A stretch of 64,000 bases of DNA from Acidobacteriota bacterium (GCA_043743165.1 JAYTXA010000066.1:4847-68846), one strand, 5' to 3'. Counted from the first letter of the stretch, positions 1-13,801 are shown. A program made the numbers and translations. The notes: generated by a model from the letters alone, not told the origin.

Positions 1-688
1 TGTGCTCGGCAATCTTGCGACGCATCACCGACAGCGCCACCGTCCGCCCGGCGAGCCCGGCCCCGGTGGCCGGGGTGTGACCGGATGATGGCGTCGGCGC
101 GACCGCGGCCGGAGCGGGCGCCGCTGCGCCCCCCTTCTCGATGTAGGTGATGATGTCGCTCTTGGTGACGCGGCCGCTGATGCCGGTGCCCTGAAGCTGT
201 GCGATATCGACCGAGTGTTCCTTGGCGATGCGCCGCACCAGCGGCGACGATTTCTGGCGGAGCCGCTCTTCCGTCGTGCTCTCGACGGGAATGACGCCCG
301 CGACGGGCGTGTCAACGACCGGCTCGGCCACCGCGGCCGCGGGCGCGGGAGCTGTCTTCGTGGACGGTGCGCCGTCGCCCTGCGCCTTCGGGGCCGGGGG
401 CGGTACGGCGTGCGCCTGAGCCGCAGGCGTGGCGAGGTCCGGCAGCGTGCCGGCCGCTGCGATGATGGCCACGACGGAGTTGACGGGAACCGTCTCGCCC
501 TCGTGAGCGAAGATCGTTGTCAACACGCCGGCCGCGGGCGAGGGAATCTCCGCGTCGACCTTGTCCGTCGAGATCTCGAAGAGGGGTTCGTCGCGATCGA
601 CGCTGTCCCCGACCTTCTTTATCCAGCGGACGATCGTCCCCTCGGCGATCGACTCGCCCATCTGCGGCATCAATACGTCGCTGGCCAT
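1..688 (-). CDS. 2-oxoacid dehydrogenase E2 (dihydrolipoamide acyltransferase), partial (3' end off-window)
   Basis: Own translation from ATG (complement of 686-688): MASDVLMPQMGESIAEGTIVRWIKKVGDSV..EISTDKVDAEIPSP (lipoyl domain). Then an Ala/Pro linker, then SPLVRRIAKEHSVDIAQLQGTGISGRVTKSDI (E3-binding domain) and the start of the catalytic domain. Absent from the ORF track because the stop lies outside the window. Confidence 0.85.
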   Translation of the reverse strand, partial: MASDVLMPQMGESIAEGTIVRWIKKVGDSVDRDEPLFEISTDKVDAEIPSPAAGVLTTIFAHEGETVPVNSVVAIIAAAGTLPDLATPAAQAHAVPPPAPKAQGDGAPSTKTAPAPAAAVAEPVVDTPVAGVIPVESTTEERLRQKSSPLVRRIAKEHSVDIAQLQGTGISGRVTKSDIITYIEKGGAAAPAPAAVAPTPSSGHTPATGAGLAGRTVALSVMRRKIAEH

Positions 689-701
689 AATCTGACTTTC
701 C

Positions 702-2129
702 CTACATGTGGATCGCGGCGCCGTGCGTGGCGTGCGCGGCCTCGCCGACGGCTTCGGCCATCGTCGGGTGCGCGTGAATGGTTCGGATCAGCTCCTCGAC
801 CGTCGACTCGAGCCGCAGCGCAAGCGTCGCTTCGGCCACGAGTTCGGTGGAGCGCGGACCGATCATGTGCACGCCGAGGATTTCGTCGTACTTCTTGTCG
901 GCCACGATCTTCACAAAGCCTTCTGTCTCGCCCGCCATCTTCGCGCGGCCGAGCACGCCGAACGGGAAGGTGCCGACGCTGACGTCGTACCCCTTCTCGA
1001 TCGCTGCCTTCTCGGTGAGGCCAACGCTGCCGATCTCCGGGTCGCAGTAGGTGCAGCCCGGGACGTGCCCGTAGTTGAGCGGGTGGACGTCGTGTCCGGC
1101 GATGCGCTCGGCCACGAGGATACCTTCGGTCGACGACACGTGCGCCAGTTGCGGGTGCGGGCCGTTACCGAGCGTGATGACGTCGCCGATGGCGGAGATG
1201 CCCGGCACGTTCGTGCGGTACATCGCGTCCACCTTGATGTAGCCGCGCTCCATCTCGACGCCGAGCTGCTCGATGTCGAGGCCGGCGGTCACCGGCCCGC
1301 GGCCCGTCGCCACCAGCAGGTACTCGGCGGTGATGTCCTTCGTCGTGCCGTCCGGCAACGCCGCCTGGAGCACGATGCCGTCGGCGGTGGCCTTCGCACT
1401 CGTCACCTTCGTGCCCGTGAGCACGGTGATGCCCTTCTTCCGAAACGACTTCTGGAGTTCAGCCGACACCGCTTCGTCCTCGACCGGCACCAGCCGCGGC
1501 AGCAGTTCGATGATGGTGACATCGGAGCCGAAGCTCTTGAAGATCGACGCGAACTCGACGCCGACCGCGCCGCTGCCCATGATGGCGATCGACTTCGGCA
1601 CCGCCTTCATGTGGATGGCCTGGTCGCTGGTGATGATCCGCTGGTGATCGATCGTGATGCCGGGCACGCTGCGCGGCGACGACCCGGTCGCGACGATGAT
1701 CTCGATCTTCGCCTTGAGGGTCTGCACGTCCCCGTCGATGATCTCGACGACGCCGTTGCCGGCCAGTCGCGCGGTCCCCTTGATCCAGTCGATCTTGTTC
1801 TTCTTGAAGAGGAACTCGACGCCCTTGGTCAGGCTGGTGATGATCTTGTCCTTGCGGGCATGCACCTGCTTCATGTCGATGGAGATTGGGACTCCCGAGC
1901 CGTCGCCGATCGTCACGCCCCACTCCTTGGCGCCCTGCACAATCTTCAGCGCGTGCGCGTGCTCGAGCAGCGCCTTGGTGGGAATACAGCCCCAGATGAG
2001 GCAGGTGCCGCCAAGCGACTTCTGCTTCTCGACACAGGCCACTTTGAGCCCGAGCTGAGCGGCGCGGATCGCAGCCACATACCCGCCGGTGCCGGCTCCA
2101 ATCACGATGACGTCGTATTCGTTGGTCAT
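702..2129 (-). CDS. lpdA: dihydrolipoyl dehydrogenase (E3)
   Basis: 475 aa. FAD fold VIVIGAGTGGY, redox disulfide GGTCLIWGCIPTK, and full-length similarity to the Lpd family. Confidence 0.95.
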   Translation of the reverse strand: MTNEYDVIVIGAGTGGYVAAIRAAQLGLKVACVEKQKSLGGTCLIWGCIPTKALLEHAHALKIVQGAKEWGVTIGDGSGVPISIDMKQVHARKDKIITSLTKGVEFLFKKNKIDWIKGTARLAGNGVVEIIDGDVQTLKAKIEIIVATGSSPRSVPGITIDHQRIITSDQAIHMKAVPKSIAIMGSGAVGVEFASIFKSFGSDVTIIELLPRLVPVEDEAVSAELQKSFRKKGITVLTGTKVTSAKATADGIVLQAALPDGTTKDITAEYLLVATGRGPVTAGLDIEQLGVEMERGYIKVDAMYRTNVPGISAIGDVITLGNGPHPQLAHVSSTEGILVAERIAGHDVHPLNYGHVPGCTYCDPEIGSVGLTEKAAIEKGYDVSVGTFPFGVLGRAKMAGETEGFVKIVADKKYDEILGVHMIGPRSTELVAEATLALRLESTVEELIRTIHAHPTMAEAVGEAAHATHGAAIHM

Positions 2130-2392
2130 TTCTTCAGGGAGGACAGAGGAACGAACGTTGTTGTGGCTGCCGGCCGCGGGGCTGCGGCCTCGGCGTCGGG
2201 CTCAGGCTGTTTCACGCCAGCGCCGGCTTCGAGGCGATTGAGGCGCACCTTCAACTGCCCGATTTCGTACCGGACTTCCCAGTACGACTCGGCCAGCCGC
2301 TCGGCGCGCTTGCTGAGGCTGCGCGAGCGGAAAAGGGCCGAGATGGCCAGCACTATGGCGACACTTGCGAGAACGAGGGAAAAGGGCAACAA
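2126..2392 (-). CDS. small membrane-anchored hypothetical protein
   Basis: 88 aa with an N-terminal hydrophobic helix (FSLVLASVAIVLAISALF) followed by a coiled-coil-like segment. Its stop overlaps the lpdA start by 4 nt. Confidence 0.5.
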   Translation of the reverse strand: MLPFSLVLASVAIVLAISALFRSRSLSKRAERLAESYWEVRYEIGQLKVRLNRLEAGAGVKQPEPDAEAAAPRPAATTTFVPLSSLKK

Positions 2393-2441
2393 AACAGGTA
2401 CGTTAACGAACGGCTTGCAACAGTGTCAACCGGCTGCGACA

Positions 2442-3854
2442 ATGACGGCGCTCCCACCCAAGTCGATGAGCCTGAAGCCTAAGACCGTTCTCATCGTCGA
2501 TAGCGACGAGAGCATGCGTGACAGCTTCGCCTCCGCGCTGAAGCGCGAGTTCCGTGTGCTTCGCGTCGGAACGGGCGAAGCCGCCCTCTCGATGCTGACC
2601 AAGGACGAGGTCGATCTCGTGCTGGTCGACGCCCGTCTCCCCGGCATCAGTGGCTTCGAGCTGCTCCAGATCGTCCGGGAGAACTTCCCGCTCATCGAGG
2701 TGATTGTCGCCTCGACCGCCGCCGACGTCGAGACCGCCGTGCAGGCCATGAAGCACGGGGCGTATCACTACATCCCGAACGACGTGCCGCAGGAGCACTT
2801 GCGGGCGCTGCTGCGCCACGCGGGCGAACAGCAGGACCTCTGCCGGCAGGTGCTGGCGCTGTCCGCGCAAGTGGCCGACGAGTCCGGCCGCGAGTTCATC
2901 GTCGGTCCCAGCCGCCTGACCCGCGACGTGATCGACGTCGTGCACCGGGTGGCCAAACTGCCGGCCACCGTCCTGATTCTCGGCGAGAGCGGCACGGGCA
3001 AGGAGCTGCTGGCCCGCCTCATTCACCGCGACAGCGAAAATCCCGAGGCGCCGTTCATCGCGGTCAACCTCTCAGCCATTCCCAGGGAACTGCTCGAGAG
3101 CACCCTCTTCGGCCACGAGAAGGGGGCGTTCACCGGGGCTATCCGCCAGCAACTGGGCAAGTTCGAGCTCGCCGCGGGCGGCACGTTGTTCCTCGACGAG
3201 ATCGGCGACCTGCATCTCGACCTCCAGGCGAAGCTGCTGCGCGCCATCCAAGAGGACGAGATCGAGCGCGTCGGCGGACAGCAGCCGATCAAGACCTCGT
3301 TCCGACTGATTGCGGCAACCAACGTCGACCTCGAGAAGGCCGTGAAGGAAAGCAAGTTCAGGGAGGACCTCTACTACCGGATCAACGTCATTCCCATCAA
3401 GATGCCGCCGCTGCGGGAGCGCTCGGAAGACATTCCGCAATTGGCCGAGTTCTTCCTGCGCCGCTACAACACCCGCTTCCGCAAACGCATCATCGGCATC
3501 ACCGAGTCGACGATGGCCATGCTGAAGAAGTACTGGTGGCCCGGCAATATCCGCGAACTCGAGAACCTGATCGAGCGCATCGTCGCGATGAACGACAAGG
3601 AATACATCGGCGAGGAAGATCTGCCGCTGGAGTTCCACTTCGCGCAGCTCGAGCCGCGAGGTCAACGCAGCGACAGGCTGTTCGAAGATGCCACGAACAC
3701 CTTCGAACGCAACTTCATCCTGCGAGCCCTCGAGAAGTGCGGCTGGAACGTCACCGCCACCTCCGACTACCTTGGCGTACCGCTGAGCACGCTCAAGTAC
3801 AAGATGGACAAGCTCGAGGTTCGTCAGCTCGCCCGTCGCATTCGCGGCGTCTGA
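2442..3854 (+). CDS. sigma-54-dependent response regulator (NtrC/Fis family)
   Basis: Receiver domain (VLIVDSD..DLVLVDARLPG), AAA+ domain (GESGTGKE, ESTLFGHEKGAFTGA, i.e. the GAFTGA loop), and a C-terminal Fis-type HTH. The real start is inside track ORF 708..3854; ATG 2442 or ATG 2466. Confidence 0.9.
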   Translation: MTALPPKSMSLKPKTVLIVDSDESMRDSFASALKREFRVLRVGTGEAALSMLTKDEVDLVLVDARLPGISGFELLQIVRENFPLIEVIVASTAADVETAVQAMKHGAYHYIPNDVPQEHLRALLRHAGEQQDLCRQVLALSAQVADESGREFIVGPSRLTRDVIDVVHRVAKLPATVLILGESGTGKELLARLIHRDSENPEAPFIAVNLSAIPRELLESTLFGHEKGAFTGAIRQQLGKFELAAGGTLFLDEIGDLHLDLQAKLLRAIQEDEIERVGGQQPIKTSFRLIAATNVDLEKAVKESKFREDLYYRINVIPIKMPPLRERSEDIPQLAEFFLRRYNTRFRKRIIGITESTMAMLKKYWWPGNIRELENLIERIVAMNDKEYIGEEDLPLEFHFAQLEPRGQRSDRLFEDATNTFERNFILRALEKCGWNVTATSDYLGVPLSTLKYKMDKLEVRQLARRIRGV

Positions 3855-4090
3855 GCCGTTCGCGCCGGCAATGACGGGCAGGTTCCCAGCCCCGCAGGCC
3901 AAGTCCTTGGCCTGATCGCAAACCATCCGGATTTGCGTACGGAATAGGCGTCCGGACCGCGTTGCGGCACCAGGCGGCCCACCGGTTGCCCCGTCCGGCG
4001 CTGCGGCACCGCGCGAAGAGGAGGCCGGCAGTGGATGCCAACCCTTTGTTTACCAATCGCTTCCAGCGTTTGCCGAGCTCGGCTGGTGCG

Positions 4091-4106
4091 CGGAATACCG
4101 GTTGCA
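4091..4106 (+). promoter_or_regulatory. candidate sigma-54 (-24/-12) promoter upstream of the radical SAM operon
   Basis: CGGAATACCGGTTGCA: GG(4092-93)-N10-GC(4104-05) spacing with a good -12 TTGCA. The -24 half is weak (CGGAAT versus TGGCAC). It lies about 120 nt upstream of ATG 4227 and next to a sigma-54 activator gene. Confidence 0.3.
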
Positions 4107-4226
4107 CTGCACGGTAGGTGCGGAGGGCTGTGCACGGCCGTCCCTATCAACTGTCAAGCCAGCGGTTCGTTCAGAACGCTCTGCGCGTTTTCTGTGTGTG
4201 GTCTGCCCCCGTGATCCCGAGGACGA

Positions 4227-5600
4227 ATGGCGCCTTCGCTCTTCAATTTGCGCGTCCCGTTGCCGGACAATCGGGTGTTTCTCTGGAACACCTTGACTGA
4301 TGCCGAGGCGATCGTTGACGCCGATGTCGATGCCCTGCTCCAGGCGCCTCCGGGTTCTCTCGCGCCGCTCGATGCGGATACCCGTGAGGCACTGCTCACG
4401 CTGACCGAGCACGGGTTCATCACGGACGGACGCCACGCCGATCGCGTCGCCCTGGCGAACCACCTCCACGCCGTCACGCACGACCGCTCGGAACTGCACA
4501 TCTCCATCCTCACGACGCTGGCCTGCAATTTCGGTTGTGGTTACTGCTATCAGGGCGACCGGACGAGCCACGGCCACGCCGCCTCGATGTCGCTCGACAC
4601 GGCCGCACACGTGGCCCGCTGGGTGGAAGCACAGCTCGACGAGGTGCAACCCGAGCGGCTGCTGCTGTCGTTCCTCGGGGGCGAGCCGCTCCTGAACACC
4701 GCCGCCATTCGCGTCATCGCGTCGCACCTGGCGGCTGCCACCAACGCCCGCGGCGTTCGCCAGGTCGTCACCCTGGTGACCAACGGACTGCTGCTCACTG
4801 AAGCGACGGTCCAGGAGCTGCTGCCGTTCGGCCTCGCCGGCGTGAAGGTCACGCTCGATGGTGCCCGCGAGGCGCACGACCGCTCGCGTCCACTGCGCGG
4901 CGGCCAGCCGACGTTCGACCGCATCATCGACAACCTTCGACGTATCGCCCCGCACGTGCCGATCGCCATCGGCGGCAACATCGACCCCGACGATGCCGCG
5001 TCGTTCACCGAACTGCTGGCGTTCCTGAAGGCACAGCCGTTCGCGGACCGGGTGACCCAGGTGAACGTCAAGCCAGTCGTACGCAGCAGCCAGCCCGGCG
5101 CGCTGCGCCTCGGCAACGGCGCCGTCATTCCGCTGCGGCCCGTGGCCGCCGATACGCCGCGTGCGGCGCGGACCGCCGAGAAGGATGACCCCTTCATCAG
5201 GCTCCGTGCCGAGGCGCGGTCGTTCGGCTTCACCACCGCCGACGCCACGCGTCAGGGGCCGTGCCATGTGCACATGGCGCATGCGCACACGATCGGCCCT
5301 GACGGCGCCCGCTATGCCTGCCCTGGTTTCACTGGCGATCGGGCGCTGCCGGTCGGCCACATCAGCGGCCACAGCACGGCCGCCATGCAGCGCGGCCGAC
5401 TCGCCTTCGAGCAGTTGCGGCCCTGGGACGCCTGCGGCGACTGTTCGTTCATTCCCGTGTGCGCCGGCGGATGCGTCGCGTCTTCCTACAGGGAGAGCGG
5501 CGACATCAATCGTCCAGCGTGCCACAAGCGCGGCCTCGAGGCCGCCGTTGTCGAACGCGCGCAGCTGGCGGCGCTCGCCTGCGCAGGAGTTCCCGCATGA
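4227..5600 (+). CDS. radical SAM/SPASM-domain peptide-modifying enzyme with N-terminal RRE-like extension
   Basis: 457 aa. CNFGCGYC (CxxxCxxC) at residues 100-107, and C-terminal ACGDCSFIPVCAGGC (Cx2Cx5Cx3C SPASM signature) plus further Cys. The roughly 90-aa pre-cluster extension contains a winged-helix-like REALLTLTEHGFI. GAGGA RBS lies before the ATG. Confidence 0.85.
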   Translation: MAPSLFNLRVPLPDNRVFLWNTLTDAEAIVDADVDALLQAPPGSLAPLDADTREALLTLTEHGFITDGRHADRVALANHLHAVTHDRSELHISILTTLACNFGCGYCYQGDRTSHGHAASMSLDTAAHVARWVEAQLDEVQPERLLLSFLGGEPLLNTAAIRVIASHLAAATNARGVRQVVTLVTNGLLLTEATVQELLPFGLAGVKVTLDGAREAHDRSRPLRGGQPTFDRIIDNLRRIAPHVPIAIGGNIDPDDAASFTELLAFLKAQPFADRVTQVNVKPVVRSSQPGALRLGNGAVIPLRPVAADTPRAARTAEKDDPFIRLRAEARSFGFTTADATRQGPCHVHMAHAHTIGPDGARYACPGFTGDRALPVGHISGHSTAAMQRGRLAFEQLRPWDACGDCSFIPVCAGGCVASSYRESGDINRPACHKRGLEAAVVERAQLAALACAGVPA

Positions 5601-5695
5601 CGAAGATCATCATCATCAAGAAGGCGACGACGCACGCAAAGCCGCAGGGCATCTGTCCGATCTACGTCGACGACTTCCCGGCCAGCCGGAAGTAG
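5597..5695 (+). CDS. 32-aa small ORF, candidate radical-SAM substrate/precursor peptide
   Basis: MTKIIIIKKATTHAKPQGICPIYVDDFPASRK. Its ATG overlaps the rSAM stop (ATGA at 5597-5600). AGGAG Shine-Dalgarno at 5585-5589, 7 nt upstream. It is the in-frame tail of track ORF 5459..5695. Confidence 0.5.
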   Translation: MTKIIIIKKATTHAKPQGICPIYVDDFPASRK

Positions 5696-5705
5696 CCGCA
5701 CCAGC

Positions 5706-7178
5706 ATGGCCGGCGTGGGCACACCCCTGAGCAGACGCATGGCTGGCGCAGCCATCATCGTGCTCGCGATCTGCGCGCAGGCCTGTAGCGCGCCGCCGGT
5801 GGTGGCGATGCCCCCCCGTATCCTGCGCATCGGCTTCGGGCTGCCGTCCGGCGACGCCGGCACCAGCGGCGTGCGCCAGGCCGCGCGCATTCTCTCGGTC
5901 GAGGCATTGATCTCGTTCTCGCGCAGCGGGCGGCCGCAGCCCTGGCTCGCCGACCGGTGGGACGTCACCGCGGACGGCCGCACGCTCACGATTCATCTGA
6001 AGTCCGGCATCCGCTTCCACGACGGCCGGGCACTCGACTCCGCCACGGTGCGCGACGCCCTGCAGACCCAGTTGCCCTCGTACATGGGGCCGGCATTCGG
6101 CGACATCAGCGCCATTACCGTGGCGTCGCCGCAAAGCCTGACCATCCAAATGAGGCGCCGCTCGAACTTCGTGCTCGAATCGCTCGATGCCGGTCTCACC
6201 TCGCCCGATTCCCCTGACGCCGGAACGGGCCCGTTCCGATTAGCCGAGCGAGGCAGCAACGACATCCTCGCGCTCGACGCCTATCGCGGCTATCGCGACG
6301 GCAGTCCGGCCATTCCCCGCGTCGAGTTCCACGCCTATCCGTCGGAGCGGGCGGCCTGGGCCGACATGCTGCGCGGCGACGTCGACATGCTCTACGAGGT
6401 GAACGCGGAGGCGCTCCAGTCGCTCGAGCCGTCGCCGCACGTGGCGGTCTACTCGCATCCGCGCAACTACGCCTACGTGCTGTTGATGAACGTGCTGCGG
6501 CCGCAGTTGCGCGACGGGCGGGTGCGGCGCCAGTTGAACGACGCCATCGACCGGCGCCTGCTCGTCCAGGAGGCGATGAACGGCCATGGGCGCCCCATCG
6601 ATTCGCCCATCCCCCCGGACCATTGGGCGGCCGAGCCGGACGACCACACCTCACGCTTCAGCTACACGCCGACGCCGCTCGGCGGCGCGCCACGTTCACT
6701 GACGTGCATCTTCGCCGACGCGTCGCTCGAGCGCATGGCCATGGCGGTGCAGCGTCAACTGCGCCAGATCGGGGTCGAGCTCACGCTCGAGCGCATTCCA
6801 ATCGACCAGCTCTATGCGCGTGCGACGGCCGGACATTTCGACATGCTGCTGGCCGACATGATCGCCGGGCCCACCATGGCGCGTCAGCAATGGTTCTTCG
6901 GCAGCGGCGCGCAGTTCAACTGGGGGCACTACAGCAACCCCGCAGTCGATCGCGCCTTCGACGCGATGCGCGGCGCCGCCTCGGACCCGGAGTACCGGCG
7001 CGGCGTGGCCGCCTACGCACGCGCCATTGTCGACGACCCGCCGGCGATCTTCCTCGCCTGGAGCGAGCGGACGCGCGCGGTCAGTACCCGCTACGCGGTG
7101 CGGGCGGACGCCGGACGCGACGTGCTCAGCACCCTGCGTGAGTGGCGCGAAGCCGACGCCGAGCTCGGGGCGCACTGA
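5706..7178 (+). CDS. ABC-type substrate-binding protein, family 5 (peptide/nickel-type), lipoprotein-like
   Basis: 490 aa. Signal/lipobox-like AAIIVLAICAQAC|S, and SBP_bac_5-like blocks (DRWDVTADGRTLTIHLKSGIRFHDGRALD). No permease or ATPase genes are adjacent. Confidence 0.8.
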   Translation: MAGVGTPLSRRMAGAAIIVLAICAQACSAPPVVAMPPRILRIGFGLPSGDAGTSGVRQAARILSVEALISFSRSGRPQPWLADRWDVTADGRTLTIHLKSGIRFHDGRALDSATVRDALQTQLPSYMGPAFGDISAITVASPQSLTIQMRRRSNFVLESLDAGLTSPDSPDAGTGPFRLAERGSNDILALDAYRGYRDGSPAIPRVEFHAYPSERAAWADMLRGDVDMLYEVNAEALQSLEPSPHVAVYSHPRNYAYVLLMNVLRPQLRDGRVRRQLNDAIDRRLLVQEAMNGHGRPIDSPIPPDHWAAEPDDHTSRFSYTPTPLGGAPRSLTCIFADASLERMAMAVQRQLRQIGVELTLERIPIDQLYARATAGHFDMLLADMIAGPTMARQQWFFGSGAQFNWGHYSNPAVDRAFDAMRGAASDPEYRRGVAAYARAIVDDPPAIFLAWSERTRAVSTRYAVRADAGRDVLSTLREWREADAELGAH

Positions 7179-7179
7179 C

Positions 7180-8919
7180 ATGCGCATCCGTCGCGTCGCG
7201 TCGCGCTTCGCCATCATGCTCGCCGCTGCTGCGCTCGTGCCGCTGGTGGCGTTTGGCGCCTGGTCGCTGGTCACCCTGCAGGGTGCGACGCGCGAGTCGG
7301 TTGTGACCTCGAACCTCGGCCTGGCAACGCGCGAAGCGGAGGACATCTCGCGCGACCTCGAAGGCGATGTCGACATCTTGCGCGCGCTGGCCGCCGACAT
7401 CCAGGACACCGGCCTCCAGCGCTGGCAGAAGGACCTGATCCTCAAGAACTACGCGCTGCGGTTCCGCGAGTTCCGCGAACTCACCCTGTTCGACCCGAAT
7501 GCCGCGGTGCTCGCCACCAGCCGCGTCGGACAGACACGGCTGACGGTGCCGGCCAGGACGCTACTGACCATCGGCGGGGTGTCGATGTCGCCCATCCACA
7601 TCGACGAAGACCTGCTGCCAACCAGCCTGTTCTCCGTGCCGCTGGTGGAGATCGGGCAGCCCGCCGGATGGCTCGTGGCGGAGTTGAGCCTCGAAGAGAT
7701 GTGGCGCATCGTCGAGAAGATCCGCGTCGGCTCGCACGGCTACGCGCTGCTCGTCGCCGCTGATGGACGCCTCATCGCGCACGGCAACCCGGACCAGCGC
7801 GCGCTCGTGGCGCGTGGCCAGCCCCTGGCAGGCCATCCGCTGCTGGCCGGTGGTTCAGCGGTGACGTGGAAGGAATACCTCGACCTGCGTGGCACCACAC
7901 AGCTCGGCGTGGCGGCGCGCGTGCCCAAACTGGGGTGGACGCTCATCATCGAGCAACCGACGGATGAAGCGTTCGCGACGGCGACGCGACTCGGCTGGCA
8001 GCTGGCGTTCGCGGCCATAGCCGCGCTGGTGCTGATGGTGACCATCGGTGTGGTCCTGGGCCGCCAGTTCATCGCGCCGATTTCGGCGCTCGAGGACGCC
8101 ACCCGGCGGCTCGCGGCCGGCGACTTCCACGCGCGCGCGACGGTGAGCGGCGCCGACGAGTTCGCACGCCTCGGCGGGTCGTTCAACACCATGGCCGATC
8201 GACTGGTGAAGCTGCAGGACGCCATCAAGAGCCAGGAGCGCCAGGTGATGTTCGGCCGTGTCGTCGCCGGCCTGTTCCACGACCTGAATCACCCGATCCA
8301 GAACATCGGCAATAACGCACGGCTCATGCTGCGCGACGATGTGGATGCCGAGACGCGGGTCACACTGCAGGCGACCATCGACCGCGAGCTCGGCACGCTG
8401 CGCCGCTTCATGGACGATGTGCTGAACGCGGCACGGCCGCGTCCGCTCGATCGCTTCCCGATGGAAGTGAACGGCTCCGTGAACGAGGTCGCCGACGCCA
8501 TGCGCGCCGAGAGCGACCGCGCGCGTGTGCTGATGGTGGTGCGGTGCGCGGCCGGCCCCCTCATCATCGATGCCGATCGCTTCGCCATCAGCCGCGTCTA
8601 TCGCAACCTGCTCACCAACGGGCTCCAGGCTACGCCGCCTGGTGGACGCGTCACCGTCAGCACGGCACGCATCGGCGGCCGCATCGAGATCAGCGTGACG
8701 GACACGGGGGGCGGCATTCCGCCCGAGCGCCTCGCGGCCATCTTCGACGACTTCGTCACGACGAAGCATCGCGGCCTTGGCCTCGGTCTCGCGACGTCAC
8801 GCCGCATCGTCGAGCAGCTCGGGGGCACCATCGCCGTCGTCAGCACGGTCGGCGAAGGCTCGACCTTCACGCTGCGCTTCGAAGCCAGCCCCGCGCAGGC
8901 GATAGAAGCCGCGAGCTAA
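7180..8919 (+). CDS. sensor histidine kinase (2 TM, periplasmic Cache-like domain, HAMP, HisKA, HATPase)
   Basis: Starts at MRIRRVASRFAIMLAAAALVPLV, 1 nt after the SBP stop. HAMP (APISALEDATRRLAAGDF), H-box LFHDLNHPIQN, N/G boxes NLLTNGLQAT, DTGGGIP, GLGLGLA. Confidence 0.9.
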   Translation: MRIRRVASRFAIMLAAAALVPLVAFGAWSLVTLQGATRESVVTSNLGLATREAEDISRDLEGDVDILRALAADIQDTGLQRWQKDLILKNYALRFREFRELTLFDPNAAVLATSRVGQTRLTVPARTLLTIGGVSMSPIHIDEDLLPTSLFSVPLVEIGQPAGWLVAELSLEEMWRIVEKIRVGSHGYALLVAADGRLIAHGNPDQRALVARGQPLAGHPLLAGGSAVTWKEYLDLRGTTQLGVAARVPKLGWTLIIEQPTDEAFATATRLGWQLAFAAIAALVLMVTIGVVLGRQFIAPISALEDATRRLAAGDFHARATVSGADEFARLGGSFNTMADRLVKLQDAIKSQERQVMFGRVVAGLFHDLNHPIQNIGNNARLMLRDDVDAETRVTLQATIDRELGTLRRFMDDVLNAARPRPLDRFPMEVNGSVNEVADAMRAESDRARVLMVVRCAAGPLIIDADRFAISRVYRNLLTNGLQATPPGGRVTVSTARIGGRIEISVTDTGGGIPPERLAAIFDDFVTTKHRGLGLGLATSRRIVEQLGGTIAVVSTVGEGSTFTLRFEASPAQAIEAAS

Positions 8920-8934
8920 AACGTTCCGAGAGGC

Positions 8935-8977
8935 GTAGCTGCCGAGGAGAAGTGTCGCTGCCGACCTTCAGGTCGGC
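8935..8977. repeat. REP-like hairpin element, copy 1
   Basis: GTAGCTGCCGAG..TCGCTGCCGACCTTCAGGTCGGCT. The perfect 7-bp stem GCCGACC/GGTCGGC with a TTCA loop is at 8960-8977, just after the kinase stop. Confidence 0.5.
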
Positions 8978-9121
8978 TGGATTCAGTTGTGCGGGAGATT
9001 GCTGGCGGGAGCGATCCGGTGGTGAGGGGAGCGCAGCGGCCCGACGTGCCTGGCCGCCGCGCTGCTCTCCACCGCGGTGCACACAGATCGTTGTGTGGGG
9101 AGCGCGTCTTGAACGACGAGC

Positions 9122-9421
9122 CTACTTGCGCGGAAGAACGGCGTCCTTCAGCTGCTTGGTGATGCGCGCCTTCACCACCGTCTTGGCTGGAATCTTGATC
9201 GCCTCGCCAGTGGCAGGGTTGCGGCCCATGCGAGCCTTGCGCTTCTGGACGACCAGTTTCACCATTCCGGGCAGCACGAATTCGCCGGATTTCTTGAGTT
9301 CCCTCTCGGCCAGCTGCGCCAGCTCATCGAAGAACTCGCGAGCCTGCGTGCGCTTGACCTCGAACCGTTCCGCGAAATGCGAGAACAGCTCGGACTTGCC
9401 CATGCGGCGGGCGTCAGCCAT
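9122..9421 (-). CDS. HU/IHF-family DNA-binding protein
   Basis: MADARRMGKSELF..GRNPATGEAIKIPAKTVVKARI (HU arm motif). GAGGAG RBS upstream of ATG 9421; alternative start at 9403. Confidence 0.9.
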   Translation of the reverse strand: MADARRMGKSELFSHFAERFEVKRTQAREFFDELAQLAERELKKSGEFVLPGMVKLVVQKRKARMGRNPATGEAIKIPAKTVVKARITKQLKDAVLPRK

Positions 9422-9584
9422 GTTGATATCTCCTCGTGTCGATCGCGCGTTAGTGAGTGGACCATCGATCACCGCGCGCGCGGCGAAGACCGAGGCGTTC
9501 GCTGTGAAATTGGCCTCATGCTATCCCGCATTTTCAGCCACTGTCAAACAGTGAGATCGCAAAAAACGCGATTTTTCTGAGGGA

Positions 9585-9950
9585 ATGTTAGAATTTCACG
9601 CTATGTCAAGCTCGACCCTCGAGACGTTCCCCAACCCGCGTCCCGCGCGCGATTTCGAAGTCACCATCAGTTGTCCGGAGTTCACATCGGTTTGTCCGAT
9701 GACCGGACTGCCCGACTTCGGCGAGATCCGAATCGTCTACGTGCCCGACGCGTTGTGCGTCGAATTGAAGTCGTTGAAGTACTACATGCTCGAGTTCCGG
9801 AACAAGGGCATCTTCTACGAAGCCGCCACCAACCAGATTCTCGACGACCTCGTCGCAGCGCTCTCGCCCCGTCGCATGACCGTGACGGGCCACTTCTCCG
9901 CCCGCGGCGGCATCACCACCAGCGTCACCGCTACCCACTCGACGGCGTAG
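9585..9950 (+). CDS. queF: NADPH-dependent 7-cyano-7-deazaguanine (preQ0) reductase
   Basis: CPEFTSVCPMTGLPDFGEIRIVYVPD..VELKSLKYYMLEFRN, the type-I QueF signature. Alternative start ATG 9603 (MSSSTLETF). Confidence 0.9.
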   Translation: MLEFHAMSSSTLETFPNPRPARDFEVTISCPEFTSVCPMTGLPDFGEIRIVYVPDALCVELKSLKYYMLEFRNKGIFYEAATNQILDDLVAALSPRRMTVTGHFSARGGITTSVTATHSTA

Positions 9951-10136
9951 CCAGGCCGGACCTCGGACGACGCACGCCGGACCGACGCGCCGAGCGCGAA
10001 CGCGCCTGCACATTCGTAACGTGACGCGCGAAATCCGTGGCGCGTACGCCCCGTCCACATCTGTAAGTGCAGCGACGGTTCTGCGGATGCGCGACTTCAG
10101 GCCTGAATTCGTGAACTTCCGGCATCTGCCGCACGC

Positions 10137-11168
10137 ATGGACGCACGCTCGGTCAGGAACGGCGCTTGCCTTTCCCGTGGTGAGGTCCTTGCTGACACCA
10201 TGCCACTGCTGCTTGCGATCGAACCCGATGCACGACAGGCGGCCTGCCTGACGGCACTCGTGCCGGCGCATCTCACCGCGAACCTCGTCCTCGTGACGTC
10301 CGTGGACGACGCACTCACCGCCCTCGAGCAGCAGCGGCCAGACCTGGTGCTCACCACGCCGTGCCTCAGCGCGTCTGACCAGGCGGTGTTGCTGGCGAGG
10401 CTGGGCGCCAGTAACGGGCACTACCCGGTCGTGCCGACCCTGGCGATTCCACGCTTCACAGCCGACCCGACGTCGCCACGCGGCCCGCACGGAGTGCTGG
10501 CGCGGCTGCGCCGTCCGCGCTCGCCGCGAGGCACACCCGACTGCGAGCCGGCGGCCTTTGCCGCGCAGATCACCGAATGCCTTGCACTGGCGGAGGCCGT
10601 GCGGCGCGCCTGCGCACAGGCCACAACCGGAGGAATGCCTGGCACCACACTGCCGGAGTCGGATGCAGCGACTGCGGCGATACAGCTTCGCGTGACTGCC
10701 GAATCCGAACGTGCCGACGACCCAGCCGTCGATGGTGGGTGGCTCGACCTCGAGCCGTTCCTCGACGACGAGACGATGGCCGAGAGGCTGCGGCATGCAC
10801 ACGACGCTGATGGACTGCAGGAGCCAGATGTCATCGAACTGCCCCCGCCTGACGAGCTGTGGGCGCAGCTTGCGCCCGGCTACACCGCGCGGATGGCGCC
10901 ACTCGAAGGGCCGTCGATGAGTCCGCGGGCAGCGCACGCCGCGACGCACGGGGGGAGCAGCAACATGGAAGCACCCGAGGCTGTGGGCGTTCCGCTGCGG
11001 CTGGTGCGCGCACGCACCGGTTCAGACCGGCCGATGCAGGACGAGTGGGGCCTCTACGACCCCGAGCAGTGCGGGTTTGCGGCGTTGCGACTGCGCCTCG
11101 AGGAACTGGCTGACGACGACCGACGCGAGCAGGACCGCGTCACTCGCTCTGCTATTATTCGCCGGTGA
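10137..11168 (+). CDS. hypothetical protein with N-terminal receiver-like (probably pseudo-receiver) domain
   Basis: The likely start is ATG 10200 (MPLLLAIEPDARQ..). The domain has a CheY-like beta-alpha pattern, but DLVLTTPCLS sits where DLVLLDxxMP is expected. The stop overlaps the GTG of the next gene (GTGA). Confidence 0.4.
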   Translation: MDARSVRNGACLSRGEVLADTMPLLLAIEPDARQAACLTALVPAHLTANLVLVTSVDDALTALEQQRPDLVLTTPCLSASDQAVLLARLGASNGHYPVVPTLAIPRFTADPTSPRGPHGVLARLRRPRSPRGTPDCEPAAFAAQITECLALAEAVRRACAQATTGGMPGTTLPESDAATAAIQLRVTAESERADDPAVDGGWLDLEPFLDDETMAERLRHAHDADGLQEPDVIELPPPDELWAQLAPGYTARMAPLEGPSMSPRAAHAATHGGSSNMEAPEAVGVPLRLVRARTGSDRPMQDEWGLYDPEQCGFAALRLRLEELADDDRREQDRVTRSAIIRR

Positions 11169-13780
11169 CGTCTTCCAGGGCGCGCGCCCTGATGCTGAGT
11201 GGGCTGTTGGCGCTGGCCGCGCCGGCCGCCGCCCAGGTCCCCACGCCAGACGCCCACTTCGGTTTCAGGCTCGGATCCGATCGTCGGCTTGCGACCGCTG
11301 ACGACATCGCCCGCTACTTCACCCGTGTCGCGTCGCAGACCGATCGCGTCACGCTGATCGACCTCGGCAACACCACCGACGGGCATGCCATGCCGGCCGC
11401 CGTGGTGAGCGCGCCGGAGAACATCCGCAACCTCGACCAGATACGCGCCGCCAACCTCCGCCTCTCCGACCCGCGCACGCTCGAGCCTGACGAGGCCAGG
11501 CGTCTGGCTGCGACGCAGAAGGTCATTGTCGCCATCGGCGGCAGCATTCACGCGTCGGAGGTTGGCGCCGCGCAGGCCGCCAGCGAGCTTTTGTACACGC
11601 TGGTGACCGCCACCGACGCGCAGACGCTGGCCGTGCTGCAGAACGTCGTGGTGGTGCTCATCCCGTCACTGAACCCCGATGGCCAGCGACTGGTGGCCGA
11701 CTGGTACGAGAAGCACAAAGGCACGCCGTGGGAGGGCGGGCCGATGCCGTGGCTCTACCAGAAGTACGCCGGGCACGACATCAATCGCGACGCGTTCATG
11801 ATGAACCTGGCGGAGAACCGCAATCTCGCACGGTTCATGTACAGCGACTGGCACCCGCAGGTCTTCCTCACCATGCACCAGATGGAAGAGAACGGACCGC
11901 GGTTCTTCGTGCCGCCGAACACCGATCCGATCGACCCCAACTCCGACCCGCTCATCTGGCGATCCGCCGCGCTGCTCGGCAGCGGCATGGCGCTGCAGAT
12001 GCAGGCTGAAGGCAAGTCGGGCGTCGTCTCGAGCGCGAAGTACGACTACTACTGGCCCGGCTTCGAGGACTCGGCGCCGATCGGCCACAACACCGTCTGC
12101 CTGCTGACCGAGGTGGCCAGCGTCGACGTGGCCACGCCCGTGAACGTGCCGGCGACGGAACTGCGCGCCGGCTTCAAGGGACTCGCCGACTACCGTCCGC
12201 AGATCAATTTCCCCGACCCATGGCCCGGCGGCCGCTGGACGCTGCGCGACATCGTCGACTACGACCTGAGCGCGGTGCGCGGGTTGCTCGTCGCGGCGTC
12301 GGCGTATCGCGAACAGCTCGTGCTGAACTTCTACACCATGGGGCTGCGCGCCGTAGAAAAGGGGCGCCAGGGCGGACCGTTCGCGTTCCTCATTCCTCCC
12401 GAGCAGCACGATCCGCTCACCACCGCCCGGCTCGAGGAACTACTGCTCGCCGGCGCGATCGAGATCCAGCGCGCGATGGAGCCGTTCCGCGCCGACGGCG
12501 AGCCGTATCCGGAGGGCACGGACATCATCTTCATGACGCAGCCGTACCGGGCGTACGTGAAGTCGCTGCTCGAGCGCCAGAGCTATCCCGCGCGGCGCAT
12601 TGCCCCGAACGGACCGCCCGAGCGCCCCTACGACGTGGCTGGCTGGACGTTGCCGATGCAGATGGGCGTCAGCGTGGTCACCATCGAGCGCCGGTTCGAG
12701 CCGCCGTCGCTCACGCGCGTCACGACGCCACGCCTGCTGCAGGGCTCGGTGTGGGGCGAACGCAAGCCGGCCTACTGGGTCATAGACGGGCGCGGCAACG
12801 GGGCGGCGCTGGCGGTGAACCGGCTGCTGGCCGCCGGCGCCATGCCGTCGTGGACGACGACCGGACTCGACACGCTCGGGTTACACCACACCGCCGGCGC
12901 CATCGTCGTGCCGTACGTGCGGAACAGCGAAGCCGTGGTGGCGCGTGTCGCCCACGACCTCGGATTGCGCGTGGACGGCATGAAGGGCAAGCTGCCGCCG
13001 AAGCTCCAGCCGATCGGCCGGTCGCGAGTCGCGGTGTACAAGCCGTGGACCGCCAGCATCGATGAAGGCTGGACGCGGTTCGTCCTCGATCAGTTTGAAT
13101 TCACATATTCCGGGCTGACCGATCAGCAGGTGCGCGCCGGCAATTTGCGCGCGCAGTTCGACGCCATCGTGCTGCCGAACGTTCCGGGCAACATGCTGAC
13201 GGCCGGCTACGCGTCTGACGTCGTACCGCCGGACTATGCCGGCGGCCTCGGCGATGCGGGCATCGAGGCATTGCGGCAATTCACGCGGGCCGGCGGCAGC
13301 CTCATCTGCCTGGGTGCATCGGGCGGACTGGCTATCGGTGCGTTCGAGCTGCCGGTGCGCGACCTTGCGCGTGAGAACGACGACCGCCTCTTCGTCCCCG
13401 GCTCCATTGTCAGGCTGACGCTCGACCCGACGCATCCGCTCTCGTTCGGCATGCAGCCGGACACCGCGGCGTTCTTCGCCTTCAGCTCGGTGTACGCCGC
13501 CGCGTCTGCGACAGCACGCGCCGAAGAGCCGCGCGATCCGTCGCTGGCCGCCGGTGTGAAGACCGTGGCGCACTACGGCGAACGCGACGTGCTGCTGAGC
13601 GGCTGGCTCGAGGGCGAATCGATCCTGGCCGGACGGGCCGCTATCCTGGAAGCGCCCGTCGGCAGCGGACGCGTGGTGCTGTTCGGCTTTCCCGTGCAGC
13701 ACCGCGGCCAGGCGCACGCCACGTTCCGCCTGCTGTTCAACGCGCTGTTCACGTCGCCGCAGGGGCCGGTGAAGAAATAG
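11165..13780 (+). CDS. secreted M14-family zinc carboxypeptidase-like protein
   Basis: 871 aa. Signal peptide ALMLSGLLALAAPAAAQ, and an HxxE zinc motif in GGSIHASEVG. The long C-terminal extension is of unknown function. Confidence 0.75.
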   Translation: MTSSRARALMLSGLLALAAPAAAQVPTPDAHFGFRLGSDRRLATADDIARYFTRVASQTDRVTLIDLGNTTDGHAMPAAVVSAPENIRNLDQIRAANLRLSDPRTLEPDEARRLAATQKVIVAIGGSIHASEVGAAQAASELLYTLVTATDAQTLAVLQNVVVVLIPSLNPDGQRLVADWYEKHKGTPWEGGPMPWLYQKYAGHDINRDAFMMNLAENRNLARFMYSDWHPQVFLTMHQMEENGPRFFVPPNTDPIDPNSDPLIWRSAALLGSGMALQMQAEGKSGVVSSAKYDYYWPGFEDSAPIGHNTVCLLTEVASVDVATPVNVPATELRAGFKGLADYRPQINFPDPWPGGRWTLRDIVDYDLSAVRGLLVAASAYREQLVLNFYTMGLRAVEKGRQGGPFAFLIPPEQHDPLTTARLEELLLAGAIEIQRAMEPFRADGEPYPEGTDIIFMTQPYRAYVKSLLERQSYPARRIAPNGPPERPYDVAGWTLPMQMGVSVVTIERRFEPPSLTRVTTPRLLQGSVWGERKPAYWVIDGRGNGAALAVNRLLAAGAMPSWTTTGLDTLGLHHTAGAIVVPYVRNSEAVVARVAHDLGLRVDGMKGKLPPKLQPIGRSRVAVYKPWTASIDEGWTRFVLDQFEFTYSGLTDQQVRAGNLRAQFDAIVLPNVPGNMLTAGYASDVVPPDYAGGLGDAGIEALRQFTRAGGSLICLGASGGLAIGAFELPVRDLARENDDRLFVPGSIVRLTLDPTHPLSFGMQPDTAAFFAFSSVYAAASATARAEEPRDPSLAAGVKTVAHYGERDVLLSGWLEGESILAGRAAILEAPVGSGRVVLFGFPVQHRGQAHATFRLLFNALFTSPQGPVKK

Positions 13781-13801
13781 GCTCCTCGCCAACCAACACG
13801 C

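Follow-up and report, generated by a model that had tools for sequence, protein, structure and literature searches.

Several described systems pair the gene of a substrate-binding protein (SBP) with that of a sensor kinase, the SBP acting as a co-sensor. The nearest is CBP-ChiS of Vibrio cholerae, followed more loosely by LuxP-LuxQ-LuxO, TorT-TorS and AioX-AioS-AioR. CBP belongs to the SBP_bac_5 family and the periplasmic domain of ChiS is dCache-like (PMC8050422), and family-5 SBPs are established as co-sensors in CBP-ChiS, DppA-Tap and AibA-TlpB (PMC8050422). Here we describe a five-gene module from a 64-kb stretch of DNA of an Acidobacteriota bacterium (hereafter, the window), in which a response regulator, a radical SAM (rSAM) peptide maturase and its precursor peptide precede an orphan family-5 SBP and a sensor kinase. 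LuxO and AioR are sigma-54 activators, as is the regulator of the module. The ligands of CBP-ChiS, LuxPQ, TorTS and AioXS are chitin oligosaccharides, AI-2, TMAO and arsenite, whereas that of the module is inferred to be a ribosomal peptide encoded in its own operon. The module differs further in that its kinase is non-hybrid and its SBP has no linked transporter; CBP, by contrast, also works with an ABC importer.

The module also resembles peptide-signaling and peptide-modifying systems. AgrBDCA, ComQXPA and NisRK co-encode precursor, modifying enzyme and receptor under autoregulation, as we propose for the module, and share with it the joint diversification of signal and receptor among close relatives. 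These are Firmicutes systems in which a membrane kinase senses the signal directly and the regulators are of the sigma-70 type, whereas the module occurs in diderm phyla and has a putative SBP co-receptor, a sigma-54 activator, a predicted rSAM cross-link and, in some clades, a TonB-dependent receptor. The maturases CteB (SCIFF), PapB (freyrasin) and QhpD have in common with the module maturase a CX3CX2C motif, a seven-Cys SPASM domain and an N-terminal RRE, the last being a prediction for the module. PapB joins Cys to the carbon beside an Asp/Glu carboxylate and also to C-terminal residues, and its Cys-Xn-Asp/Glu motifs resemble the module's Cys followed by a carboxylate-bearing residue (PMC9413430, PMC12373016). 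However, the module precursor contains only one Cys, with one X4 ring predicted where the comparators have multiple rings, and the module maturase shows only ~20% sequence identity and scores far under every curated NCBIfam cut-off. Methanobactin operons (MbnA, MbnBC, MbnT, MbnE) and TonB-linked lasso-peptide clusters combine a RiPP precursor with a TonB-dependent receptor and a permease-less family-5 SBP, as do loci L050, L056, L086 and L087 of our comparison set. The module does not qualify as a methanobactin operon: it lacks MbnB/MbnC chemistry, its maturase is an rSAM enzyme, and in place of the sigma/anti-sigma pair of the methanobactin type it has a sigma-54 activator within a two-component system. 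The module of the window also lacks a receptor gene, unlike methanobactin operons with their MbnT. No published description of the module was found in the literature searched.

The analysis followed an earlier sequence-only reading, which had described five tightly packed same-strand genes, a 372-nt spacer after the first of them and no accompanying ABC permease or ATPase genes. This layout was confirmed and held in full:

2442-3854, plus strand: NtrC-family response regulator (sigma-54 enhancer-binding protein), identified by Pfam domains and translation
3855-4226: spacer between the regulator and rSAM genes, 372 nt
3897-3912, no strand assigned: distal enhancer-like palindrome GGCCAAGTCCTTGGCC, putatively bound by the regulator, 194 bp 5' of the -24 box
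3976-3991, no strand assigned: half-degenerate palindrome GGCCCACCGGTTGCCC, the proximal of two enhancer-like elements, 115 bp 5' of the -24 box
4091-4106, plus strand: sigma-54 type -24/-12 promoter CGGAATACCGGTTGCA, 137 nt upstream of the rSAM ATG
4227-5600, plus strand: radical SAM/SPASM peptide maturase with an N-terminal RRE-like domain, identified by Pfam and NCBIfam matches
5597-5695, plus strand: precursor peptide MTKIIIIKKATTHAKPQGICPIYVDDFPASRK, 32 codons, with an equivalent ORF in relatives
5706 (ATG) to 7178 (stop), plus strand: orphan family-5 SBP (PF00496), the proposed peptide receptor
7180 (ATG) to 8919 (stop), plus strand: sensor histidine kinase, identified by Pfam domains

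The peptide ATG overlaps the rSAM stop codon (ATGA), and the kinase starts 1 nt past the SBP stop, a gap from which we infer, from sequence alone, that the SBP and kinase genes are translationally coupled. Neighboring genes in the window encode an Lpd-like protein (minus strand), HU, QueF, an unknown ORF, an M14 peptidase and HsdM. Within ~10 kb of the module in the window there is no gene for an ABC permease or ATPase, and none was called among the 15 loci whose gene tables were examined, the remaining loci having been searched for the query genes only. The layout of an Opp/Dpp/Nik importer (an SBP with two permeases and one or more ATPases) was accordingly not met in the window or the 15 examined relatives. 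The source organism is a soil acidobacterium.

Conservation of this neighborhood, the check proposed with the sequence-only reading, was then assessed across 53 species-level genomes, mostly Vicinamibacterales, and the outcome was positive. The SBP and kinase genes lie downstream of the rSAM gene in all 43 testable loci, the regulator lies upstream of it in 45 of 49 testable genomes, and a precursor ORF follows it in 45 of 49; four Vicinamibacterales loci have no adjacent regulator. The Lpd, HU and QueF flanks are likewise syntenic across Vicinamibacterales, but the module is kept where the Lpd/QueF flanks are missing, as at L050 (a Myxococcota MAG), L056 (an unclassified bacterium) and L091 (Nitrospiria), and in other MAGs. 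The module is widespread. Exceptions among distant loci include L087 and L088, where the kinase is missing, and L089, where the SBP is. Distant versions often carry a TonB-dependent receptor, encoded between the regulator and rSAM genes (L050, L056, L087, L089) or beside them (L086), implying that the ligand is taken up from outside. The receptor gene is absent from Vicinamibacterales loci, the window included. No conserved exporter or leader peptidase was found in any clade; an MFS gene occurs at L050 only, on the opposite strand.

The maturase matches Radical_SAM (PF04055), and its SPASM cysteine motif was read from the sequence. The CX3CX2C motif (C100-x3-C104-x2-C107) is invariant in 24 homologues. 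The seven-Cys SPASM pattern (CX9-15GX4C, gap, CX2CX5CX3C, gap, C) is complete, at C346-x13-G-x4-C365, C403-x2-C406-x5-C412-x3-C416 and C432, with every one of these cysteines invariant in homologue group A1. CteB is the closest solved structure both by sequence (E 4e-17) and by full-length fold (Foldseek, E 6e-16), and Cys-peptide maturases, PapB and QhpD among them, make up its NCBIfam neighbors. TIGR04280, the computationally defined 'geopeptide radical SAM maturase' family, is the best curated model for the rSAM proteins in each of the three clades, with scores of 234-305 bits (233.8 for the window protein, 256-305 in the other clades) that all miss its 400-bit cut-off. The structure model contains a beta3-alpha3 unit at residues 7-84, at moderate confidence (pLDDT 72). 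Together with the full-length CteB alignment and the leader covariation described below, it supports an N-terminal RRE, which is predicted by the model; leader binding is inferred.

The window meets the expectation of an adjoining short Cys-containing precursor. Its peptide of 32 aa consists of a leader (MTKIIIIKKA) and a core, KPQGICPIYVDDF, with a single Cys and an Asp at Cys+5. None of the precursor peptides matched an NCBIfam model. Across relatives the leader is conserved as MKIxVIKK, and the core is hypervariable except for Cys, Pro at +1 and Asp/Glu at +5: Cys is invariant in 45/45 peptides and Asp or Glu occupies Cys+5 in 43/45, while seven of the eight peptides from other clades either end at Cys+5 or have Asp there. 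On the basis of this motif and homology to CteB-like rSAM/SPASM enzymes, we predict a Cys-X4-carboxylate thioether ring; the product itself is inferred.

The regulator comprises REC, Sigma54_activat, AAA_lid and HTH_8 domains (PF00072, PF00158, PF25601, PF02954), and its translation shows GAFTGA and the receiver Asp context, fulfilling the NtrC-family architecture of REC, AAA+ with GAFTGA and Fis-type HTH. The sequence-only reading had also noted a sigma-54-like -24/-12 element in the spacer. A plain consensus scan of the window was not above chance (59 matches vs 71 expected), but the element held by phylogenetic footprinting, which recovered, in almost every one of 52 orthologous spacers, a box, yGGAAy-N5-TTGCw, placed 31-137 nt 5' of the rSAM ATG. 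In the window copy GG and GC are 12 nt apart; its score of 16.5 is reached by 4.6% of background 150-nt windows, and scores of at least 17.5, typical of most orthologous boxes, by 0.8%. The box is present in 5/6 distant-clade loci, and L088 has neither regulator nor box. No sigma-70-like promoter was found in the spacer. Upstream of the box, GGCCAA-N4-TTGGCC (at most 2 mismatches) occurs in 42 of the 52 spacers, with distal offsets clustering ~195-215 bp from the box, and a proximal site ~113-116 bp upstream recurs in many of them. The distal palindrome is the sole match in the 64-kb window at no more than 1 mismatch, and the distant locus L092 has four copies of the distal type. Positional conservation over the 52 spacers thus meets the expectation of a -24 GG/-12 GC promoter with upstream activator sites. 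The -24/-12 element is real and the cis elements are shown by conservation; occupancy and promoter function are inferred.

The SBP_bac_5 protein is modeled confidently (pLDDT 88.5) with a cluster-C SBP fold. A fold search leaves its ligand class undecided, the best hits being proteins that bind Ni chelates, peptides, opines and glutathione, with 15-21% identity. NikA/NikZ, Opp5A, CntA, DppA and AgaA are the closest NCBIfam and PDB neighbors, with curated cut-offs far from reached (e.g. 104 bits vs 393 for NikA), and a match to MbnE is weak (E 1e-6 over ~115 residues). The N-terminus has a signal or lipoprotein-like sequence, and a Gly-Cys conserved in the homologue consensus suggests a lipoprotein. 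The kinase comprises dCache_1 (residues 41-258), HAMP (293-343), HisKA and HATPase_c domains. Hydrophobic segments at ~10-32 and 272-294, read from the sequence, flank the periplasmic dCache_1, so that both the placement of a periplasmic sensor domain between two TM segments and the SBP-kinase adjacency outside a transporter operon expected of a co-sensing pair are met.

Covariation was evaluated by partial Mantel tests on 24 loci with regulator distance controlled. The peptide core tracked the SBP (r = 0.31-0.57, p <= 0.002) and the kinase sensor domain (r = 0.37-0.49), and showed no correlation with the rSAM enzyme (r ~ 0). The leader tracked the N-terminal 90 residues of the rSAM enzyme (r = 0.33-0.38, p <= 0.003) and no other part of it, nor the SBP. 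The strongest association, exceeding that of either partner with the peptide, was between SBP and kinase sensor domain (partial r 0.65), and it is the sole evidence, an indirect one, that the two proteins interact. At 89-91% regulator identity, SBP identity was 0.75 for loci with matching cores (L025/L030) and 0.36-0.51 where cores differ. The SBP is the fastest-evolving gene of the cluster, with a mean pairwise distance of 0.64 vs 0.27 for the regulator. Both the Mantel and the pair tables meet the expectation of signal-receptor co-diversification, subject to phylogenetic non-independence: shared ancestry inflates Mantel significance, and n is only 24.

Overall, we favor, with moderate confidence, a RiPP signal circuit that is autoinducing and diversifies in the manner of pherotypes, with ligand binding, phosphotransfer, cross-link and export all inferred. 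The rSAM/SPASM enzyme would bind the MKIxVIKK leader through its N-terminal RRE-like domain, a step with covariation support, and would form a thioether between the lone Cys and the residue at Cys+5 that bears a carboxylate (Asp22 here), closing a ring of six residues of ranthipeptide or PapB type. The processed peptide would get to the periplasm or outside through an unlinked route of unknown identity. There the orphan family-5 SBP may capture it, and the loaded SBP would contact the periplasmic dCache of the kinase, as the three-way covariation supports. The kinase would phosphorylate the NtrC-type regulator, which would occupy both GGCCAA-N4-TTGGCC palindromes and turn on the sigma-54 promoter at 4091-4106. 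Transcription of the rSAM, peptide, SBP and kinase genes from it would exert positive feedback on signal and receptor alike.

The sequence-only reading had proposed sensing of the peptide through SBP and kinase, a sigma-54 activator and a feedback loop. This is supported by the conserved neighborhood, the conserved promoter with its palindromes, the co-diversification of the core with SBP and kinase sensor domain, and the TonB-dependent receptors of distant versions, with binding, phosphotransfer, chemistry and export remaining inferences, but the loop needs qualification: the regulator gene lies 5' of the sigma-54 promoter and is therefore probably outside it, so that the loop would likely amplify maturase, peptide, SBP and kinase and not the regulator. 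The missing exporter and leader peptidase, flagged then as a weakness, remain one. Dedicated export and processing genes are conserved in no clade, and the circuit is therefore not shown to be self-contained. It further counts against the circuit that regulator, kinase or SBP is missing from some loci, that core-SBP covariation is equally compatible with an immunity or sequestration role of the SBP, and that no experimental evidence of any kind exists.

Other explanations must be weighed against this reading. One possibility, less likely than the circuit, is that an unrelated external cue (nutrient peptides or a metal chelate, for instance) is what the SBP and kinase detect, and that the regulator then turns on the rSAM-peptide pair as an output, for example a bacteriocin or stress peptide, the peptide not being the ligand. 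The nutrient and metal-chelate binders among the SBP's neighbors (NikA/NikZ, Opp5A, CntA, DppA, AgaA) and the absent exporter favor this view, and dCache domains frequently bind small metabolites. However, covariation ties the core to the SBP and the kinase sensor domain and not to the modifying enzyme, a differing core goes with a drop in SBP identity from 0.75 to ~0.4 while regulator identity stays constant, and the receptor for a common nutrient is not expected to be the fastest-evolving gene of its cluster (0.64 vs 0.27). Least plausible, and already disfavored, is that the gene order is inherited synteny without functional coupling. The syntenic Lpd, HU and QueF flanks of Vicinamibacterales speak for it, but other phyla have the module and not these flanks, conservation extends to its cis elements, and its genes overlap or are 1 nt apart at their junctions.

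Two further rivals, both of which we regard as unlikely, give the peptide a different role. In one it is a secreted metallophore-like or scavenging RiPP, a methanobactin analogue recaptured through the TonB-dependent receptor and SBP, with the SBP, kinase and regulator reporting its loaded form. In its favor are the TonB-dependent receptors of L050, L056, L087, L089 and L086, the weak match of the SBP to the methanobactin binder MbnE (E 1e-6), nearest curated families that bind metal chelates, and an SBP without a permease; MbnE likewise has none. Against it, the only potential soft ligand, the Cys, is the predicted cross-link site, a metal-binding site would not usually have so hypervariable a core, the receptor gene is lacking from the Vicinamibacterales loci, that of the window among them, and no metal-responsive regulator or box was seen. 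In the other, the peptide is an autoinducing bacteriocin of the nisin/subtilin type, sensed directly by the dCache domain, and the lipoprotein-like SBP is a sequestering immunity protein. An immunity binder would explain core-SBP covariation equally well, and the SBP signal sequence and conserved Gly-Cys suggest a lipoprotein; two-component autoinduction of RiPPs is established for lantibiotics. Yet SBP-sensor covariation (partial r 0.65) exceeds that of either with the peptide, the SBP and kinase genes, 1 nt apart, appear translationally coupled, CBP-ChiS directly exemplifies co-sensing by an SBP_bac_5 protein paired with a dCache kinase, and a TonB-dependent receptor encoded by the producer suits uptake or sensing better than killing.

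Returning to the autoinducing circuit, the peptide core and SBP change fast and jointly between species, and the system therefore behaves like private dialects (pherotypes), a pattern of diversification that resembles the "dialects" of quorum sensing.

ORF listing and translation confirmed every coordinate that the sequence-only reading had assigned to its proposed self-contained peptide-signal circuit at 2442-8919. With the Pfam/NCBIfam domains, the gene set is:

2442-3854, NtrC-type regulator (REC, Sigma54_activat, AAA_lid, HTH_8)
regulator-rSAM spacer, 372 nt
4227-5600, rSAM/SPASM maturase gene (Radical_SAM domain)
5597-5695, precursor peptide, a 32-codon ORF whose ATG overlaps the rSAM stop
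5706-7178, family-5 SBP (SBP_bac_5)
7180-8919, kinase (dCache_1, HAMP, HisKA, HATPase_c)

We placed the regulator start at ATG 2442 because its homologues are 462-473 aa; a 1048-codon open frame at 708-3854, which extends into the regulator gene and shares sequence with the Lpd gene on the minus strand, was rejected as a high-GC artefact. The operon is flanked by genes for a minus-strand Lpd-like oxidoreductase, HU and QueF, together with an unknown ORF, an M14 peptidase and HsdM. The claim that no ABC permease or ATPase accompanies the SBP held among these neighbours, and none was called beside the SBP in any locus with gene content examined. HsdM, a type I restriction-modification methylase (N6_Mtase and HsdM_N) at 13802-15925, directly follows the M14 peptidase and was absent from the same position in the relatives examined.

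Relatives of the rSAM protein number in the thousands, most of them from Acidobacteriota and about 50% identical. Scanning one genome per species and then running tblastn with the window proteins, we found the SBP and kinase downstream of the rSAM gene in 43/43 loci with enough sequence, the regulator upstream of it in 45 of 49, and the small peptide ORF in 45 of 49. The earlier question whether these genes form a conserved neighbourhood was therefore answered positively in Vicinamibacterales, where the linkage is weak evidence on its own because the flanking Lpd, HU and QueF are likewise syntenic. Decisive evidence for a conserved gene set comes instead from distant loci, which retain the module. 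Those from a Myxococcota MAG (L050) and an unclassified bacterium (L056), with rSAM proteins 32-33% identical, both keep the regulator, rSAM, peptide(s), SBP5 and dCache kinase without Lpd and QueF. A Nitrospiria contig (L091) carries the rSAM, peptide, SBP5 and dCache kinase, and the distant locus L092 has the regulator, then the rSAM and peptide. Other distant loci are reduced, the kinase being absent from L087 and L088, the SBP from L089 and the regulator from L088. Four Vicinamibacterales loci (L019, L023, L044, L057) have neither an adjacent regulator nor Lpd, and carry a minus-strand M14-like gene instead. No exporter or leader peptidase was conserved among the loci examined. In L050, the SBP and kinase genes are separated by an MFS transporter gene in opposite orientation. 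Some distant loci also include a TonB-dependent receptor:

L050:5665-7704, between regulator and rSAM gene
L056:5689-7773, between regulator and rSAM gene
L087:5666-7678, between regulator and rSAM gene
L089:5454-7496, between regulator and rSAM gene
L086:3597-5294, adjoining the regulator

The maturase contains CX3CX2C plus the full seven-Cys SPASM motif, and its closest solved relative, both by sequence and by full-length fold, is the thioether synthase CteB. Its structure model predicts an N-terminal beta3-alpha3 RRE-like unit. In NCBIfam the enzyme comes closest to Cys-peptide maturases (geopeptide, CefB, TIGR04463, PapB and QhpD), all scoring far below cut-offs, and membership of the geopeptide family (TIGR04280) was rejected on score. 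From motif and homology, we infer that the enzyme resembles a thioether synthase.

A profile built on 45 distinct Vicinamibacterales peptides shows the leader M-K-I-x-V-I-K-K-A, K at Cys-5, P at Cys-4, an invariant single Cys (45/45), P at Cys+1 (34/45), I or V at Cys+4, and Asp or Glu at Cys+5 (43/45); in the window's 32-aa precursor, the Cys and the Asp are Cys19 and Asp24. Other clades retain an MK(I/V)xxKKG-type leader and the single Cys (a distant-clade example is MKVSKGKKVTDPKPAVCVPVAF). Their peptides end exactly at Cys+5 in L050, L056, L086, L087, L089 and L091, the L088 peptide has Asp at Cys+5, and the sole exception, L092, ends at Cys+6. A carboxylate-bearing residue at Cys+5 is thus the common denominator across clades, L092 excepted. 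PapB joins the Cys sulfur to the carbon beside the Asp/Glu carboxylate in Cys-Xn-Asp/Glu motifs (PMC9413430) and, in vitro, also joins Cys to C-terminal residues (PMC12373016). Because this chemistry coincides with the Cys+5 carboxylate pattern and a CteB-like enzyme, we predict a thioether ring of the form Cys-X4-(Asp, Glu or C-terminal residue), which remains an inference. Nine peptide variants searched against NCBIfam at E <= 10 returned nothing. In four loci, the precursor is repeated:

L013:9412-9736 and L029:9592-9950, two or three identical tandem copies
L050:9399-9713, three near-identical copies (one E/Q difference)
L038:9631-9850, two slightly different copies

Downstream of the operon, an 871-aa M14 zinc carboxypeptidase is encoded at 11165-13780. 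Peptide trimming by this enzyme is conceivable because many peptides end in Lys/Arg-rich tails. We rejected it as a conserved leader peptidase, since it is syntenic in only some loci (L002, L005, L007, L008, L020, L033, L049) and the linkage is not conserved.

The spacer upstream of the rSAM gene had been read as carrying a sigma-54-like element. A window-wide scan for TGGCAC-N5-TTGC with 2 mismatches gave no support, returning 59 matches against 71 expected, not above chance. As the plain consensus was uninformative, we footprinted 52 orthologous regulator-rSAM spacers instead, and here the claim held: the best GG-N10-GC match 31-137 nt from the rSAM ATG was almost always yGGAAy-N5-TTGCw. The window box scores 16.5, a value reached by 4.6% of background 150-nt windows, and most orthologous boxes attain 17.5, reached by 0.8%. 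A palindrome, GGCCAA-N4-TTGGCC, occurs with <=2 mismatches in 42/52 spacers, at offsets upstream of the -24 box that cluster at ~113-116 bp and ~195-215 bp. The sites in the window are:

4091-4106, -24/-12 box from footprinting, CGGAATACCGGTTGCA, with its GG at 4092-4093 and GC at 4104-4105
3976-3991, proximal palindrome
3897-3912, distal palindrome, the sole such site in 64 kb

A match at 3975-3989 was rejected as a -24/-12 box; its fixed 115-bp distance from the conserved box and its palindromic relatives mark it as an enhancer-type site. Beyond Vicinamibacterales, a good box lies just upstream of the rSAM gene in 5/6 other-clade loci (TGGCACGCCCTTTGCT in L056, for example), and none was found there in L088, the locus without a regulator. 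The distant L092 spacer holds four GCCAA-N4-TTGGC sites plus TGGCATAAGCATTGCT. The four Vicinamibacterales loci without an adjacent regulator retain the sigma-54 box (CGGAATGGCCGTTGCA, starting ~33 nt before the ATG), and no palindrome was found within 600 bp in them. We infer from this conservation, without regulator-binding data, that box and palindrome form the classic layout of an enhancer-binding-protein promoter. Since this promoter follows the regulator gene, the feedback operon would comprise the rSAM, peptide, SBP and kinase. Scans of 2100-9700 found no sigma-70-like promoter or terminator within the operon, and no Rfam elements were found in 1-16000.

We then compared pairwise distances over 24 non-redundant loci. 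Mean distance was largest for the SBP (0.64, the fastest-evolving), followed by the kinase sensor domain (0.52), rSAM (0.39) and regulator (0.27). Partial Mantel tests controlled for regulator distance and used raw, rank and log distances, also without close pairs, with the core taken as -6 to +8 around the Cys and the leader as residues 1-10. The core correlated with the SBP (r = 0.31-0.57, p <= 0.002), with the kinase sensor domain (r = 0.37-0.49) and with the kinase cytoplasmic part (r = 0.20-0.28), and showed no significant correlation with rSAM over the 24 loci (r ~0). The leader behaved in the opposite way, correlating with the N-terminal 90 residues of rSAM (r = 0.33-0.38, p <= 0.003) and, over the same 24 loci, with neither the SBP nor the kinase sensor domain. 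SBP and kinase sensor domain correlated with each other at r = 0.65. Among pairs with 89-91% regulator identity, SBP identity was 0.75 where cores match (L025/L030) and 0.36-0.51 where they differ. The tests are liberal under shared ancestry and the number of loci is small.

The SBP was modelled with confidence (pLDDT 88.5) in a cluster-C fold. Identity to its nearest structures (NikZ, AppA, YliB, NikA, AgaA, GbpA, DppA, AapF) is no more than 15-21%, and these bind ligands of several classes. Family-5 SBPs are known as co-sensors: CBP works with ChiS, whose sensor is dCache-like, DppA with Tap, and AibA with TlpB (PMC8050422). The bolder reading of the module is an unrecognised family of peptide quorum sensing among diderm phyla of soil and sediment (Acidobacteriota, Nitrospirota, Myxococcota and relatives). 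Its signal molecule would be an rSAM-cyclised peptide with a Cys-X4-carboxylate thioether ring, which in some clades would close onto the C-terminal residue itself. It would be detected by the orphan family-5 SBP docked on the dCache kinase, with a dedicated outer-membrane receptor of the TonB-dependent type added in some lineages. The output would be tied to sigma-54, and each species would come to have its own pherotype as signal and receptor diversify. Every biochemical step here is inferred, and taken whole we consider this reading more likely to be wrong than right.

Several other explanations bear on these results. The covariation could reflect a generic rate or linkage artefact, against which the double dissociation of core and leader argues; the rSAM gene lies nearer the peptide core than the kinase does. 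A cofactor precursor of the PQQ or mycofactocin-like type was rejected, since covariation of the variable core residues with the SBP makes it probable that the product retains them. Two possibilities stand beside these: the SBP may be an immunity or sequestering protein, and the signal may be a metal-loaded form. The fold search did not discriminate the ligand class, since it matched binders of Ni chelates, peptides, opines and glutathione alike.

Taken singly, the parts of the proposed quorum-sensing system are of known kinds: the maturase is a CteB/PapB-like rSAM RiPP enzyme, the kinase belongs with the SBP-dependent sensor kinases, the regulator is a sigma-54 activator of the NtrC type, and the logic is that of an autoinducing peptide as in Agr, ComX and nisin. 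What appears to be new is the assembly of a single-Cys rSAM peptide, orphan SBP5, dCache kinase and sigma-54 activator, sometimes with a TonB-dependent receptor, and its occurrence in diderm phyla with pherotype-like co-diversification. We found no description of the module in the full-text literature searched; among curated NCBIfam models, none reaches its cut-off on the rSAM, and none matches the peptide at all. Peptide cell-cell signalling is textbook knowledge for Firmicutes and almost unknown in diderm bacteria, Acidobacteriota are among the most abundant soil bacteria with an essentially unexplored social biology, and most rSAM peptides have no known role. The module is compact and conserved, and one can pick out from the sequence its signal, modifying enzyme, receptor pair, regulator, promoter and enhancer sites, making it a directly testable case. 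The predicted product would be a new small thioether macrocycle, and some clades may offer natural ring closure onto a C-terminal residue, a reaction so far demonstrated only in vitro, with PapB. Natural peptide-SBP pairs are numerous and could supply a panel of orthogonal ligand-receptor parts. Even without quorum sensing, a RiPP core co-evolving with a periplasmic binding protein offers an entry point to rSAM-peptide function.

In seven loci (L027, L029, L031, L034, L036, L038, L054), the rSAM gene and the main peptide are separated by another small ORF, of the MKNDKKETDKKKGTLRPWLVDVAVEHLR type (for example L034:9450-9536). This ORF has a core-like PW..D motif with Arg in place of Cys and no MKIxVIKK leader; judged by its sequence, it may be a paralogue that cannot be modified, possibly acting as a decoy or antagonist. 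The window's rSAM subclade (homologues P0001-P0007) does not have a three-Cys insert (GTCMTSAGAG...TCDSC) at about residues 295-320 of the window rSAM, as compared in the homologue alignment A1. All other Vicinamibacterales rSAM homologues carry it, which might give them an additional metal site; the window subclade retains the seven canonical SPASM cysteines. Two public records titled 'uncultured Bifidobacterium sp.' (L006, CAYLTD010000014.1) and 'Casimicrobiaceae' (L012, DASPYC010000338.1) contain a Vicinamibacterales-type locus with flanking genes 77-86% identical, and these bins are likely mislabelled or contaminated.
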